Shown piece after piece: positions 11,068-40,772 of a DNA stretch of 64,000 bases. Origin of the DNA: Planctomycetota bacterium (GTDB lineage: Bacteria; Planctomycetota; UBA8108; SXIK01); the NCBI GenBank assembly GCA_965223265.1, contig OZ244999.1, positions 2,240,001 to 2,304,000 of the forward strand. The letters are read 5' to 3'. Position numbers and translations under genes: made by a program. The notes under the pieces are model-generated. The model made no database searches and had not been told where the DNA came from. It saw only the letters and a list, made by a program, of their open reading frames with translations. Position 1 is the stretch's first letter. Each line of letters begins with the position of its first letter.

Positions 11068-11143
<76 letters not shown>

Positions 11144-35838: not shown

Positions 35839-36534
35839 ATTCCCGCCTCTGAGTCTCCTCCCCTGAACTTCGAGGGAAGGTGAACTGGTCGAATCGTGCG
35901 CTCTACGGCCGCGGCAGACTCTGATCTGTTTTCCGCGATCGTGCCCCGCGTGCGGTAGAATGGCCTGCATGGTGTGTCCTGACGAAACGGGCGATCCCGT
36001 TTCTCGCTGTGTCAAGCTTGCGGGTGAAAGTCCCGCCGCGGTAGGAGCCGGTGCGCCGCGTAGCAGGTACCGGGCGTGGGGAGAGATCCCTCCGTCTGAG
36101 CGGTATGTCAAAGCCCTCAGGGAGTCGTACGACTCCTGCGGAGGGGAGCAAAGCCGCGGGCCCGATGCGTAAGCGTGAACCCTGCAGCCTCGTGAGATAG
36201 ACAATCGAAAGGTGGAGTGGCCGAGTGTCACGACGAAGGCAACAGACTGTACCTGGGCAATCCATGTGGGTCGTAGTAGCCGCGTGCGGCGAGGCGGCCG
36301 TGATGGACACAACCGGAGGGGTACAGGACGCTCCCGGGGTATTGGGGAGGGCACGTGGTTACGGTTTGACACGGAACAGGAGAGGCCCTACCCGGCTGCC
36401 GACGTCGGGCGAAGGCGGCGCCTATAAGCCGATGGCGAAATGGCGTCGTGCGGGGAGGGAATCCGAGGGGTTCATAGTACCGCCGAGGCTGCGTAACAGC
36501 GGGGGAGGGAAGGGGCCCTGCTTTAGTCACGCCT

Positions 36535-37942
36535 CATAGATTGGGAGGTTAGCCGTAACCGATTATGGGATCGATGTCTACGGTCTCGAAGGCGTTCTTC
36601 GTTTGCGGATTCGTTCGTCCGGCTGTCGATCGCAAGAGGAGAAGAACGCGTTTGAGCATCGCGACAAGGGAGCGCGGCTTCGAGATGCAAGCTCGCCCGA
36701 CGTCCCTGAAGAATGTCCAGCTCAGGTCGGCGGCGATGAACGGTGCGGCATGCTTCCCTGTGTTTCGAAACGCTGAATAGAGTAGGAACCTTCGGACAAG
36801 CACGGCGAGCATGCTCGCCCAGACGAGTCCCTCGACGATGTGAGGATCCTTTGTCTGGAACTTCCGCAAGTTGGTGAACGACTTGCATTCTTTGAAAAAG
36901 AGCTCGATCTGCCAACGCAGTCTGTAGAGAGCCGCGACGATGCTCGGTGGAAACGCTCTAGGGCACAGCGTAGTCAACAGGTACACGTGGACGTCCTTGT
37001 GTCTCACATAGAAGATGACGAGCCGAAGGCAGTGGCCTTTCCCTTCGATAAGCAGATCGACGTTGCTCTTGGGAAGTTTCAGATCGCGAAGTTTCATCCC
37101 TTCCGTTGTGCGGTGCTTGAAGGGACCACGGTAGCACTTGCGGATCTTGGGATTGAACGCCTTGTGGCTCATGCGGCCGAGGAAATCCCCGCCCGCGGCT
37201 CTCACCCGAGCGGGATACTCGTAACTGGTGTACCCCTTGTCCCCCAGGATGAGTTTGCCGGCAACCTCTTCCGGCTCAGGAAGGAAGTCTCGCTCTGTTT
37301 CACTATCGGGCGCGACAGCCACCGCTACCGGTTGGCCGTCGTAGAGACTGTACGTGCAGTGCACTTCGATCGCTGCAGGGGAGATCTTCGTAAATCGTCC
37401 TGGGAAGTAATCGACGAGTGAATCATTTACCTCGAACGAGCTCCCGTCCTGCGCAACGATGTCTTCGAATCGCCGAAGATACCGTGATCTGCCGTGTCGA
37501 ATGGGATCGGACAACTCGCTCATGAACAAGGCCAGCGTCTTACGCATGAACTCCGGAAAGCCGGGAACTGAAAGGCGATCGTGGAACGGCTTGTAGGACA
37601 TCGACTCGCCCGTCAGATCGGTAAACAGTCTCAAGACTGCCGCGAGACTGTTTGTCGTTCCCGATCCCATCGCGGTCACGAACGTCCAGACCGCACGAAT
37701 AGGCGTGAACTTTCGCAGCCGCTCGAAGAAAACTGCTTCGGACGCGATCGTGTTGATGCTTTTTTCCGAGAGGACCCGTTTCAACGCAGACGCACACCGG
37801 ATAAAATCGTGGCTCATTGTTTGCCCTCCACTTCTTGTTTGGCGATGAGCTGTGGAGGGTTTTTTTACGCGAAAACCAGCGCCCCGTCGATGAATCGTCG
37901 TAAGTCATCGCCACGATGAGACTTACTAACATCCAATCTATG
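36535..37942 (-). mobile_element. IS4-family insertion sequence (1408 bp)
   Basis: IRs CATAGATTGG...CCAATCTATG. 10-bp direct repeat AGTCACGCCT (36525-34, 37943-52), present once in the empty intron copy. Confidence 0.93.
36549..37817 (-). CDS. IS4-family DDE transposase
   Basis: QDGS, GDKGY, YRLRWQIELFFKECK (YREK motif). Confidence 0.93.
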   Translation of the reverse strand: MSHDFIRCASALKRVLSEKSINTIASEAVFFERLRKFTPIRAVWTFVTAMGSGTTNSLAAVLRLFTDLTGESMSYKPFHDRLSVPGFPEFMRKTLALFMSELSDPIRHGRSRYLRRFEDIVAQDGSSFEVNDSLVDYFPGRFTKISPAAIEVHCTYSLYDGQPVAVAVAPDSETERDFLPEPEEVAGKLILGDKGYTSYEYPARVRAAGGDFLGRMSHKAFNPKIRKCYRGPFKHRTTEGMKLRDLKLPKSNVDLLIEGKGHCLRLVIFYVRHKDVHVYLLTTLCPRAFPPSIVAALYRLRWQIELFFKECKSFTNLRKFQTKDPHIVEGLVWASMLAVLVRRFLLYSAFRNTGKHAAPFIAADLSWTFFRDVGRACISKPRSLVAMLKRVLLLLRSTAGRTNPQTKNAFETVDIDPIIGYG

Positions 37943-38175
37943 AGTCACGCCTGTGTGTGGAGGTAAGTACGAGGGCATGACCTCCCACGAGCGCATCGTG
38001 AAAAAACTTGGCCTCCATCGTTTAGTCGGCACAATACGTTACCCGGGAGGTGTACACGCGCCATGAGAAGACTATCGGGGTAAGCCGTGTGCGGGAAATC
38101 CGCACGCACGGTTTGAAAGGGGGGCTCAGGAAACGGGTCCCGATTACTATGGGACACCGCGCCTGAGCCCTACCA

Positions 38176-38616
38176 ATGACAAAGAAGAAAGGGCGTCGTT
38201 TAGCTCTGGCACTTGGACTCGGGGCTGCGGTCATCGCTGCCGCAGTCGTCGCGTTCAACTGGCCACACGTGCGAGCCAAGTACATCCTTTGGAGCGAGTT
38301 CGAGCCCCTTGGAAAAAACTCGAAAGGCTACGACGAGTATCGACACCGACGCTCGGAGAGTGTTTTCATCTTGCTTCCGGGAGCCCTAGTAACGCCGCGA
38401 GAGGCGAAGTCCTTCATTGAACTACTTTTGGACTTAGGTGTTCCAGTCGAAGCGCCTTTGCAAGACGTAGAACTTCGACCATTTTTGATCGAAAAGGACA
38501 TTGTAGTGGCGCCTGAATACTACGTCGATGTTGATGATCTTTCGGATTTCCCAGAGGAACGTTCGAGCAGGCGCTCGCCAAGTTCGAGCTCTCCGCCCCG
38601 ACCGGGGCCGAATTAG
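38176..38616 (+). CDS. Membrane-anchored protein resembling the N-terminal part of FGE/SUMF1-family proteins (possibly truncated)
   Basis: TM segment, then FEPLGKNSKGYDEYRH...FILLPG...VELRPFLIEK. The ATG is formed by the intron 3' end. Confidence 0.5.
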   Translation: MTKKKGRRLALALGLGAAVIAAAVVAFNWPHVRAKYILWSEFEPLGKNSKGYDEYRHRRSESVFILLPGALVTPREAKSFIELLLDLGVPVEAPLQDVELRPFLIEKDIVVAPEYYVDVDDLSDFPEERSSRRSPSSSSPPRPGPN

Positions 38617-38787
38617 CTTACGCCCTGGAGTTTTCTCCAAACGAAGTTTCGAACGCATTCGGAATACCGGTCGATGGGATATTAAGACCGCTCCGCGGAG
38701 TCCGCCGCCTCTACCGGTAGACACCGTGCCAGAACGCCTCGATCACCCAAATCCTCTTGCCGTGAACAGCAGCATGGCGCACATCAT

Positions 38788-39571
38788 GTGTCCTGACGAA
38801 ACGGGCGATCCCGTTTCTCGCTGTGTCAAGCTTGCGGGTGAAAGTCCCGCCGCGGTAGGGGCCGGTGCACCGCGTAGCAGGTACCGGGCGTGGGGAGAGA
38901 TCCCTCCGTCTGAGCGGTATGTCAAAGCCCTCAGGGAGTCGTACGACTCCTGCGGAGGGGAGCAAAGCCGCGGGCCCGATGCGTAAGCGTGAACCCTGCA
39001 GCCTCGTGAGATAGACAATCGAAAGGTGGAGTGGCCGAGTGTCACGACGAAGGCAACAGACTGTACCTGGGCAATCCATGTGGGTCGTAGTAGCCGCGTG
39101 CGGCGAGGCGGCCGTGATGGACACAACCGGAGGGGTACAGGACGCTCCCGGGGTATCGGGGAGGGCACGTGGTTACGGTTTGACACGGAACAGGAGAGGC
39201 CCTACCCGGCTGCCGACGTCGGGCGAAGGCGGCGCCTATAAGCCGATGGCGAAATGGCGTCGTGCGGGGAGGGAATCCGAGGGGTTCATAGTACCGCCGA
39301 GGCTGCGTAACAGCGGGGGAGGGAAGGGGCCCTGCTTTAGTCACGCCTGTGTGTGGAGGTAAGTACGAGGGCATGACCTCCCACGAGCGCATCGTGAAAA
39401 AACTTGGCCTCCATCGTTTAGTCGGCACAATACGTTACCCGGGAGGTGTACACGAGTCATGAGAAGACTATCGGTAAGCCGTGTGCGGGAAATCCGCACG
39501 CACGGTTTGAAAGGGGGGCTCAGGAAACGGGTCCCGATTACTATGGGACACCGCGCCTGAGCCCTACCAAT
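38788..39571 (+). mobile_element. Group II intron copy 2 (784 nt), RT ORF deleted
   Basis: Same DI-DVI features as copy 1, uninterrupted. Ends CCCTACCAAT directly before the G of the desulfurase ATG. Confidence 0.92.
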
Positions 39572-40772
39572 GGCGAAACGGAAGGACGATTCACCCCGCC
39601 GCATCTACTTGGATCACGCCGCGACGACACCGCTGCGTCCCGAGGTCGTGCGCGCGATGCAGCCTTTCGCTGCGCAGTGCTTTGGGAATCCAAGCTCGCT
39701 CCATCTGGAGGGACGGCAGGCGAAGGCGGCTCTCGAGGAGGCGCGCGCCGCGGTGGTTCACGCTTTGGGCGCGCATGAGTTCGATCTCGCGTTTGCATCG
39801 TGCGGCACCGAGGCGAATCATTCAGCCTTGATCGGCGCCGTCCTAGCAGCCAAAGGACGACTGGCGCGGCCACACGTGGTGACAACGGCGATCGAGCATG
39901 CCGCGGTGCTCGAGTTGCTTCCGCTCCTGGAGACGCTCGGCGCTGAGGTCACCCTCGTTCCATGCAGCGAGCAAGGCGTCGTTGAGGCGCGAGCGATCGA
40001 GGCCTTGGTGCGCCCGGAGACGAGCCTCGTCAGTGTGATGGCGGTCAACAACGAGACCGGAGTCATTCAAGACGTTTCAGCGATCGGCGCTGCGCTTCGG
40101 GCCCACGACTGCTTGGTCCACGTCGATGCGGTCCAGCACCTTGGCAAGCTGGAACTTGACCTGTCTACTTGGCCGGTGGATCTCGTCACTCTCTCCGCGC
40201 ACAAGATCTATGGACCGAAGGGCGGAGCGGCGCTCGTTGCGCGGCGCGGGATTCAGTGGGAACCGCTGCTCCGCGGCGGCGGGCAGGAGGGCGGCAAGCG
40301 TTCGGGCACGCCAAACGTTGCCGCGGCTGTCGGGTTTGCTCAGGCTGTAGAGCTCGCGCAGGCCGAGTGGGCATCGGAGGCGGAGCGCCAGAGGCAGCTT
40401 CGAGATCGGCTGGAAGCGGACATCCAGCGGCGCGTGCCGGAGGCGATCGTCAATGGCGGGCGTCAGCATCGGGTGGGCGGGCTTCTGAATGTGTCGTTTC
40501 CGTTCGTCGAAGGTGAGTCGCTCGTGCGCCGGCTCGATGCCCGCGGCGTTGCCGTGTCGACCGGAAGCGCCTGCAACATCGGAGCTCACAAGCCATCGCA
40601 TGTCCTTCGAGCGATGCAGAGATCGGCTGCGGAGGTTCGCGGATCGATCCGTTTTTCGCTTGGACGCGGGAGTACCGCTGACGATCTCGCGGCAGCGAGT
40701 CAGCTGCTCTTCGAGGAGCTTGAGGTGCTGCGCCGCATCGCACCGAGTGGCAGTGCGCTGCCGAGCACCTAA
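39570..40772 (+). CDS. iscS: Cysteine desulfurase (IscS/NifS family)
   Basis: IYLDHAATTP, GNPSS, EH, NNETG, HVDAVQ, SAHKIYGPKG, RSGT, STGSAC, IRFSLG. Confidence 0.9.
   Translation: MAKRKDDSPRRIYLDHAATTPLRPEVVRAMQPFAAQCFGNPSSLHLEGRQAKAALEEARAAVVHALGAHEFDLAFASCGTEANHSALIGAVLAAKGRLARPHVVTTAIEHAAVLELLPLLETLGAEVTLVPCSEQGVVEARAIEALVRPETSLVSVMAVNNETGVIQDVSAIGAALRAHDCLVHVDAVQHLGKLELDLSTWPVDLVTLSAHKIYGPKGGAALVARRGIQWEPLLRGGGQEGGKRSGTPNVAAAVGFAQAVELAQAEWASEAERQRQLRDRLEADIQRRVPEAIVNGGRQHRVGGLLNVSFPFVEGESLVRRLDARGVAVSTGSACNIGAHKPSHVLRAMQRSAAEVRGSIRFSLGRGSTADDLAAASQLLFEELEVLRRIAPSGSALPST

Follow-up and report, generated by a model that had tools for sequence, protein, structure and literature searches.

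Group II introns have been associated with several kinds of insertion site. Three target specificities, namely homing sites, terminators, and attC sites, are given in the portion of a 2015 review that was accessible (PMC4424553). Furthermore, a clade of type IIB1/CL1 associated with start and stop codons, including Avi.groEL and EcKTE56.groEL, has been attributed to Michel et al. (2007), as cited in Gomes et al. (2025; PMC12584367), the latter source being accessible in part. This report is focused on a 64,000-nucleotide stretch of a Planctomycetota bacterium genome (assembly GCA_965223265.1, contig OZ244999.1, positions 2,240,001 to 2,304,000, forward strand), hereafter referred to as the window, in which two copies of a group II intron are located at the starts of two genes. 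The two copies are probably decayed, non-autonomous members of a group II intron lineage specialized for gene starts, in which the intron directly follows the start codon and itself terminates in a spare start codon.

Both copies are located on the + strand and are each detected by the Rfam models for group II domains I–IV (RF02003; 75.4 bits for copy 1 and 73.7 bits for copy 2, above the cut-off of 49 bits) and for domain V (RF00029; 45.8 bits each, above the cut-off of 40 bits). When an insertion sequence (IS) within copy 1 and its target duplication are excluded, the copies differ by six substitutions and one 2-nt indel in 787 aligned positions (99% identity). Their identity extends from T35973 and T38787 through G38178 and G39572, beyond which the flanks are unrelated. 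A first-pass annotation, made from the letters of the window, had described two approximately 99% identical group II introns without a reverse transcriptase (RT) at gene starts in unrelated surroundings, and this description stands: no intact RT open reading frame (ORF) is present in either copy, and since the identity is confined to the intron, no local duplication including the flanks has occurred. Of the wider family that it envisaged in the genome, the two copies, both in the window, are the only ones on the 9.18-Mb single contig, and no RT-encoding parent was found.

Copy 2 (38786..39572, 787 nt; boundaries set by comparison with the lineage) is uninterrupted, starts with AUGUG, and ends with CUACCAAUG. 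From 5′ to 3′, it comprises a 5′-subterminal 20-nt hairpin with an 8-bp stem in the fold (38798..38817), aligned with a variable insertion of 0–65 nt in relatives; the remnant of the hairpin for exon-binding site 1 (EBS1; 39035..39054), in which the alignment reveals a 7-nt deletion; a variable loop with CCAUG (39076..39080), tentatively assigned as EBS2, with pairing potential toward AUGG at −12 to −9 in each of the two window sites; what is left of an RT ORF, its last 26 codons (HERIVKKLGLHRLVGTIRYPGGVHES; 39382..39459); domain V (39476–39508); and an extended domain VI (39513–39568) with a bulged A at 39566. The RT remnant is 65% identical to residues 416–441 of the 441-aa RT of a relative in genome G083 (tblastn, E 2e-9) and, together with the presence of two near-identical copies at different sites, identifies the window introns as non-autonomous derivatives. 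The minimum free energy fold of the whole intron was not used, being unreliable for large ribozymes; the fold of domains V–VI (39476..39568) has −53.9 kcal/mol and z = −6.1, and shows a single bulged A, which, for an intron ending with ...AAUG, is 7 nt from the terminus. Copy 1 (35972–38178) is split by the IS into a 5′ part beginning with GUGUG and containing domains I–III and the start of domain IV (35972..36534; RF02003 at 36018–36172, EBS1 remnant at 36221–36240), and a 3′ part containing the RT remnant and domains V and VI (37943..38178; RF00029 at 38080–38150). Its bulged A (38172) and terminal ATG (38176–38178) were located by sequence, the fold having been made on the homologous stretch of copy 2. 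The 5′ exon of copy 1 presents a −10-like hexamer, TAGAAT (35956..35961; a motif match), 7 nt upstream of an ATG (35969..35971), the position of which is homologous to the NTG of intron-binding site 1 (IBS1) covarying with EBS1 in relatives. The 5′ flank of site 2, CAGCAT + GGCGCAC + ATC (38770..38785), has the same geometry of hexamer, spacer, and start codon, with a weak hexamer and ATC in place of ATG.

A blastn search with copy 2 identified relatives in 4 of the 61 close genomes and, in a sample of 401 genomes of the phylum, in 23. Several of them are full length, with an RT ORF in domain IV; the ribozyme of the G083 member is 83% identical to the window copy, and its RT comprises RVT_1 and GIIM domains, whereas no endonuclease domain was found in this RT by Pfam. 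It scores 199 bits against each of the solved IIC and CL1 RTs, as pairwise scores and not as a placement in a tree. Genome G003 contains an independent ORF-less copy. Further members have been found on a Ca. Eisenbacteria contig, 5′ of an FtsX-like ORF (identified by manual reading of its N-terminus) and with a 68% identical RT, and on a replicon of Embleya (Streptomycetaceae) with a 52% identical RT, so that the lineage is spread over Planctomycetota, Ca. Eisenbacteria, Actinomycetota, and many metagenomes. ORF-less forms of 381–955 nt account for 9 of 31 loci with both ends. The host genes are diverse and ordinary: thyX, arginase-family, DUF520, and EVE genes, HTH and MarR regulators, an ftsX-like gene, and a cysteine desulfurase homologue.

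Some individual loci are of separate interest. The 381-nt form (L104, on a metagenome contig) is a mini-derivative consisting of the 5′ end and domains V–VI only, located after a GTG and before a MarR-family ORF. In genome G025, a 5′-truncated RT-encoding relative on the reverse strand (L028), ending with ...CUACCAAAG, is located ~700 nt downstream of domain V of another group II intron, suggestive of nested or adjacent insertion. In the ORF-less copy of G003 (L027, 889–1703), a 16-nt stretch of the 5′-subterminal insertion matches the 3′ exon of this copy at 15 positions and in the same orientation (AGATGGCGGATCGAG versus AGATGGTGGATCGAG). That this insertion is generally a copy of the 3′ exon was considered and rejected: only G003, with a score of 25, rises above the background (8–21), into which the window falls with a score of 16.

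The junctions of this lineage share a common architecture. All 11 genome junctions consist of a TAnnnT-like hexamer, 6–8 nt, ATGGT (8), ATGTC (2), or ATCAT (copy 2), and then G(C/U)GUCCUGA, and their 3′ ends read CUACC..AUG or ..GUG. The layout of the majority of the lineage is TAnnnT, 6–8 nt, a start codon (ATG, GTG, or TTG), then GUGCG...CUACCAAUG, and then codon 2. Metagenome contigs were scanned with intron-internal motifs only, the flanks being excluded to avoid bias, and at least 80 loci were obtained. Among the 80 loci listed, a start codon is present exactly 4 nt before GTCCTGA in 60 (48 ATG, 11 GTG, and 1 TTG), compared with 0–13 of the 79 loci listed at other offsets; as the first-pass annotation had anticipated, the other copies are thus located at start codons and not at random positions. 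The spacer between TANNNT and the start codon is 6, 7, or 8 nt in 31, 16, and 3 of the 79 loci listed, respectively (50/79), and any other spacer occurs in two at most. The consensus of the hexamer among the listed loci is TAG(A/G)(A/C)T, which we take to resemble the −10 consensus of high-GC bacteria. No other conserved upstream column was observed among the metagenome loci listed, and no conserved hairpin was found upstream of the insertion site in the lineage loci. A −35 element was not found either, matches of at least 4/6 to TTGACA occurring in 0–2 of 43 loci at every spacing. The first base of the intron is U (UUGCG) in 20 of the 80 loci listed, all of which belong to one subfamily. The 5′-end variants GCGCG, UCGCG, and GUACG also occur among metagenome loci L084–L163; such changes at the normally invariant G1 are unusual for group II introns.

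The position of the 5′ splice site is suggested by covariation. In all relatives, as opposed to the window copies, an EBS1 hairpin is present in which CCG and CGG enclose a 9-nt loop, NUCAUNUCR, on an internal loop GAG/CGAA. Across 43 members, positions 3–6 of this loop are paired with exon positions −1 to −4 in 100, 98, 100, and 88%, respectively. Compensatory changes in EBS1 accompany the exon triplets ATA (UAU), TTG (CAA), GTG (CAC, four times), and ACG (UGU), the exon base at −4 varies freely together with its EBS1 partner, and for positions −3 and −4 the observed value was reached in none of 5000 shuffles. By contrast, the next two bases (GU, UU, GC, or UC) are paired with the loop in 72 and 47%, against 74 and 45% after shuffling. 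In known group II introns, EBS1–IBS1 pairing stops at the base preceding the 5′ splice site. Since EBS1 covaries with the start codon and its preceding base and not with the two bases that follow, the 5′ splice site would immediately follow the start codon and precede the site assigned by the first-pass annotation by 2 nt. A boundary of this kind, ATG/GUGCG, yields the canonical GUGYG terminus in the majority: most relatives start with GUGCG (GTGC in 35 of the 80 loci listed) and copy 1 with GUGUG, but copy 2 starts with AUGUG. The short target recognition previously proposed is supported, amounting to 4 bp including the NTG codon. A third loop of the window introns, GUGAUGG, which pairs 6/6 with site 2, was also considered as EBS1 and was rejected, as it is missing in three relatives and misfits the G083 exon, and six matching bases in a row are to be expected by chance alone within 784 nt.

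The first-pass annotation had placed the intron at GUGUCC...CCAAU, splitting an NTG codon between its second and third bases (GU/G and AU/G), with an exon G completing a rebuilt ATG, in the manner of groEL introns splitting UA/A. Several observations are in accordance with this placement: the identity of the window copies starts at T/GTGTCC and ends at CCAAT/G; the resulting intron end, AU, follows the AY rule; removal of copy 2 leaves ATC ATG GCG AAA, with a proper ATG and an N-terminus as long as that of orthologues; an invariant G as the first base of the 3′ exon is expected of a fixed IBS3; and a stop codon is split in the published clade, according to the part of PMC12584367 that was available. 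Nevertheless, the two bases that it assigns to the exon are unpaired with the EBS1 loop, whereas the four preceding bases pair and covary, and the 5′ end of the relatives would become GCGUC in place of the canonical GUGCG. It would further oblige nearly all host proteins to begin with Met-Val or Met-Leu, whereas the DUF520 ORF matches profile position 1 at residue 2, with no added residue, and terminal GTG variants break the AY rule yet retain a start codon. Splitting of the NTG codon is consequently regarded as unlikely, and the unusual GUGUC terminus and the short branch distance of 6 nt that had been remarked upon are read as artefacts of a boundary offset of 2 nt and 1 nt, respectively.

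At the 3′ end, the terminal triplet is ATG in 29, GTG in 1, and ACG in 1 of the 31 loci with both ends, so that the in-frame start codon previously described at the intron end is retained in 30 of 31. Of 19 loci, 14 have no stop codon for 50 codons or more in the frame set by this triplet, and the other two frames are open over this length in 7 and 9. In several of the downstream ORFs, a Pfam domain starts as early as residues 2–7 (DUF520, EVE, arginase, and HTH), and the ThyX domain begins at residue 30. In both window introns, the terminal ATG is in frame with the downstream ORF (38176–38616 and 39570–40772), as had been stated. The single bulged A of domain VI lies 7 nt from the proposed 3′ splice site. 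Furthermore, a head-to-tail tandem in locus L153, in which ...CUACCAACG abuts GCGCGUCC and 124 of 126 flank columns are identical, fixes the mobile unit to the proposed ends within 1 nt; the phase of the codon-splitting boundaries misfits this junction, as they require a 3-nt spacer that is not there. The L153 tandem, on a metagenome contig, consists of two ORF-less copies, both of which end with ACG and not with ATG, and the downstream ORF contains DruA and transposase domains.

The window copies themselves look like relics. In both, 7 nt of the EBS1 hairpin have been lost, corresponding to the 5′ strand of the stem and half of the CAUG loop; the remaining region forms no stable hairpin (z = 0.36), and the EBS1–IBS1 pairing found across the 43 lineage members is absent. 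At the 5′ junction of copy 2, ATC/AUGUG, ATC replaces the start codon, A is the first intron base, and the hexamer, CAGCAT, is weak. No cognate RT is present in the genome: tblastn with the lineage RT recovers only another family (43% identical) and one short fragment. To judge from these lesions, the window copies have probably lost both splicing at the canonical site and mobility, and any expression of the host ORFs would rely on translation starting at the ATG of the intron.

A different account is that the copies are still functional and are spliced by means of a maturase that the genome's unrelated RT-encoding family provides in trans, thereby regulating both host genes. Four intact RT/maturase ORFs of this second family, which match the same Rfam domain I–IV model, and the intact domains V and VI of the window copies speak in its favor, and ORF-less introns served by the RT of a related intron are documented in Trichodesmium in the accessible part of PMC12584367. 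It is opposed by the 43% identity between the RT of the second family and that of the lineage, the lack of blastn similarity between their ribozymes, the deleted EBS1 loop of both copies, the initial A of copy 2 after ATC, the presence in copy 1 of a 1.4-kb IS whose transposase gene runs antisense, and the truncation of host ORF 1 itself. Functional copies of this kind are very unlikely, and the first-pass description of the family as recently mobile and trans-activated is not supported, as the genome lacks a cognate RT, both copies have lost the EBS1 loop, and one of them carries an IS. The second family consists of four RT-encoding copies, one of which contains ~2 kb of extra insertion, and one deleted mini-copy (~1894.75–1898.66 kb and 3515.65–3517.6 kb on the + strand; 3423.9–3425.8 kb, 5913.0–5914.9 kb, and 4285.37–4285.65 kb on the − strand). 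Its shared sequence begins with (C)UCGAGUUUGG and not with GUGYG, the 5′ flanks (CUAACC, CUCUACC, etc.) are similar to CUCUACC, with which the intron itself ends, the 3′ flank is conserved among the copies over ~90 nt, and no EBS1-type hairpin is recognizable in it.

Regarding the origin of the pair, AUGG at −12 to −9 and CAU at −4 to −2 are common to the two window sites, and the tentative EBS2 loop is able to pair with AUGG; the two copies are therefore read as the outcome of one RNA-guided retrotransposition followed by decay. Copy 2 most likely arose in this manner at a near-cognate site 0.6 kb away, at a time when a cognate RT would have been available.

A number of observations weigh against this reading of the lineage and of the window. 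Some concern the junction pattern: 20 of the 80 loci listed have no start codon at the expected place, and manual reading assigns ~15 of them to other types of intron and 5 to the lineage type, with ACG, AGG, or ATA instead. TAnnnT is a motif match, and the promoter is a predicted one. The combination of hexamer and start codon is modestly enriched at long ORFs in the genome itself (22.3% versus 16–18.5%); as this enrichment is modest, the association of the introns with the hexamer is not a trivial outcome of all genes having this appearance. Others concern the splice sites. No EBS1 hairpin was detected in 46 of 89 sources, many of which are cut by contig ends or are non-members, and EBS2–IBS2 pairing is 4.87 against a background of 4.42, the cognate combinations barely exceeding the non-cognate ones, so that EBS2 is tentative. 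The end of the intron, UG, deviates from the usual AY; the proposed 3′ splice site is drawn from the reading frame, the branch distance, and one tandem; and at 5 of 19 sites, the downstream frame-0 ORF has 13 codons or fewer. The identity of the window copies begins 1–2 nt inside the proposed 5′ boundary, and copy 2 requires a G1-to-A change and has ATC in its 5′ exon, whereas the codon-splitting boundaries require no mutation in copy 2. Finally, if EBS1 is needed for reverse splicing, a copy without EBS1 should not have moved; the shared EBS1 deletion would then imply either gene conversion between the copies, which are 2.8 kb apart, or movement without EBS1, guided by EBS2 alone.

The anatomy of the intact members is suggestive of the following mechanism. 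The intron would immediately follow the start codon and occupy the extreme 5′ terminus of a transcription unit, the ATG being located 6–8 nt behind a −10-type hexamer, as in the architecture of a leaderless gene. The precursor mRNA would accordingly start at or next to the ATG, and the 4-nt EBS1 in its 9-nt hairpin loop would hold this codon by pairing with it and with the preceding base, thereby setting the 5′ splice site at ATG/GUGYG. The intron would end with ...CUACCAAUG, the A of CUA being the bulged branch adenosine and the last three bases a start codon abutting codon 2. Splicing would restore a leaderless message, 5′-AUG-codon 2; upon failure of splicing, the ORF would retain a start codon through the terminal AUG and could be translated from the unspliced RNA. 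Because the terminal AUG is usable without splicing, insertion would be tolerable for the host, and translation of the unspliced RNA would also explain why the terminal triplet has been preserved as AUG or GUG at sites that have GTG or TTG as their 5′ codon.

How such sites come to be occupied is a separate matter. The link between hexamer, start codon, and intron may reflect survival and not targeting: insertion would occur at any NATG, and only copies located behind a promoter and a start codon would persist or spread. A 4-nt IBS1 and a weak EBS2 would render many sites accessible, the hexamer is found at variable spacings (6, 7, or 8 nt), as in real promoters and not as in rigid contacts with a ribonucleoprotein, and the terminal ATG renders such insertions harmless. 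However, insertions at intergenic NATG would do no more harm and ought to be observed as well, whereas 60 of ~65 lineage-type 5′ ends listed follow a start codon (manual count), and 47 of 59 of the start-codon loci listed also have the hexamer at a spacer of 5–8 nt. Survival alone is a possible account to which appreciable, albeit minority, weight is given; it concerns the choice of site only and is compatible with the anatomy proposed above, in which the intron follows the start codon and terminates in a spare one. A more specific targeting scheme is put forward tentatively and, taken as a whole, is doubtful. In this scheme, the endonuclease-less lineage would read the start codon through EBS1 and integrate at +4 of leaderless units, where the non-template strand, single-stranded in a promoter open complex, may serve as the target (IBS2 and IBS1 span approximately −8 to +3 of the predicted start); it would splice with a 5′ exon of ~3 nt, the spare AUG would keep the host gene translated whether spliced or not, and ORF-less minis of ~800 nt would often be spawned.

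The IS and the adjacency of the host genes had been overlooked by the first-pass annotation. The IS (36535..37942, − strand; 1408 bp) interrupts copy 1 in domain IV, has inverted ends CATAGATTGG..GTTAG, and is flanked by a 10-bp target duplication, AGTCACGCCT, at 36525–36534 and 37943–37952; its transposase ORF (36549–37817, − strand) matches DDE_Tnp_1 (E 1.1e-21). Host genes 1 and 2 are adjacent, with ~610 bp from the end of copy 1 to the start of copy 2. Host ORF 1 (38176..38616, + strand; 146 aa), read from the terminal ATG of copy 1, has an N-terminal membrane segment and matches no Pfam family; it is shortened relative to homologues of 280–350 aa, aligning to residues 49–128 alone of a 299-aa homologue. 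Host ORF 2 (39570..40772, + strand), read from the terminal ATG of copy 2 (39570–39572), encodes a cysteine desulfurase homologue. At site 2, comparison with relatives covered the N-termini and the upstream architecture, the closest protein being at most 58% identical: N-termini of matching length were found in 12 of 12 relatives (41–58% identity), and TAnAAT, 6–7 nt, and ATG precede at least 8 of 11 intron-less orthologues (manual count), implying that this gene family is natively of the leaderless type. Elsewhere in the window, a tRNA gene is present at 11071–11143 (− strand; RF00005, 65.3 bits).

If the reading of the lineage is correct, splicing would be tied to leaderless translation, with the start codon sequestered by EBS until the exons are ligated, and the lineage would provide a natural test of the shortest usable 5′ exon of a group II intron. 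It would further represent a route by which a retroelement guarantees its own transcription while sparing the host gene, and would suggest start-codon-directed targetrons. The window by itself is more modest: two relics, with host ORFs that would now depend on an intron-borne ATG.

Among known systems, the start/stop-codon clade of type IIB1/CL1, as described in the available part of PMC12584367, is similar in that its members are located within or next to initiation or termination codons, as are 60 of the 80 loci listed and 11 of 11 genome junctions here. In the same account, groEL-clade introns likewise carry an extra element at a 5′-subterminal position in domain I, re-form a translation signal with the terminal bases of the intron (UA/G at groEL, AUG here), and undergo tandem integration. 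However, the subdomain Ia reported there is 300–700 nt, whereas the insertion is 0–65 nt in this lineage and 20 nt in the window, and the CL1 RT of the clade has a C-terminal endonuclease domain, whereas the lineage RT comprises RVT_1 and GIIM only. The lineage thus differs from the published clade in these two respects, and on the same features the kinship with the groEL intron suggested by the first-pass annotation is not supported; blastn of copy 2 against complete Escherichia coli genomes yielded only 49-nt domain V matches. Moreover, the groEL clade described in the accessible text is proteobacterial and its introns split a codon, whereas the present lineage occurs in the taxa listed above and follows a whole start codon. 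A link with a −10 hexamer or with leaderless genes is not mentioned for the groEL clade in the portion of PMC12584367 that was available, and a literature search, which did not extend to Michel et al. (2007) or Simon et al. (2008), revealed no report of group II introns inserted at the starts of leaderless genes. The priority of this observation is hence uncertain.

Resemblances to other groups are partial. As in group IIC, IBS1 is very short, genomic context prevails over a long target sequence, and the RT has no endonuclease domain; unlike in group IIC, which uses an upstream DNA hairpin and no EBS2 at terminators or attC sites, no conserved hairpin is observed here, the context is one of promoter and start codon, and domain I matches a different Rfam model, RF02003. 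RmInt1 (class D) similarly has an RT/maturase without the DNA-binding/endonuclease domain, EBS1 in a terminal loop, and a second variable loop that may be EBS2; it occupies one long IS-borne site, whereas this lineage is distributed over many unrelated gene starts. Finally, the ORF-less introns of Trichodesmium dnaN and RIR, to the extent that they are presented in the available part of PMC12584367, are deletion derivatives of an RT-encoding intron and occupy more than one host gene, as do the window copies; in Trichodesmium, the cognate RT-encoding intron resides in the same genome, whereas here the cognate RT is absent and the ribozyme itself is damaged.

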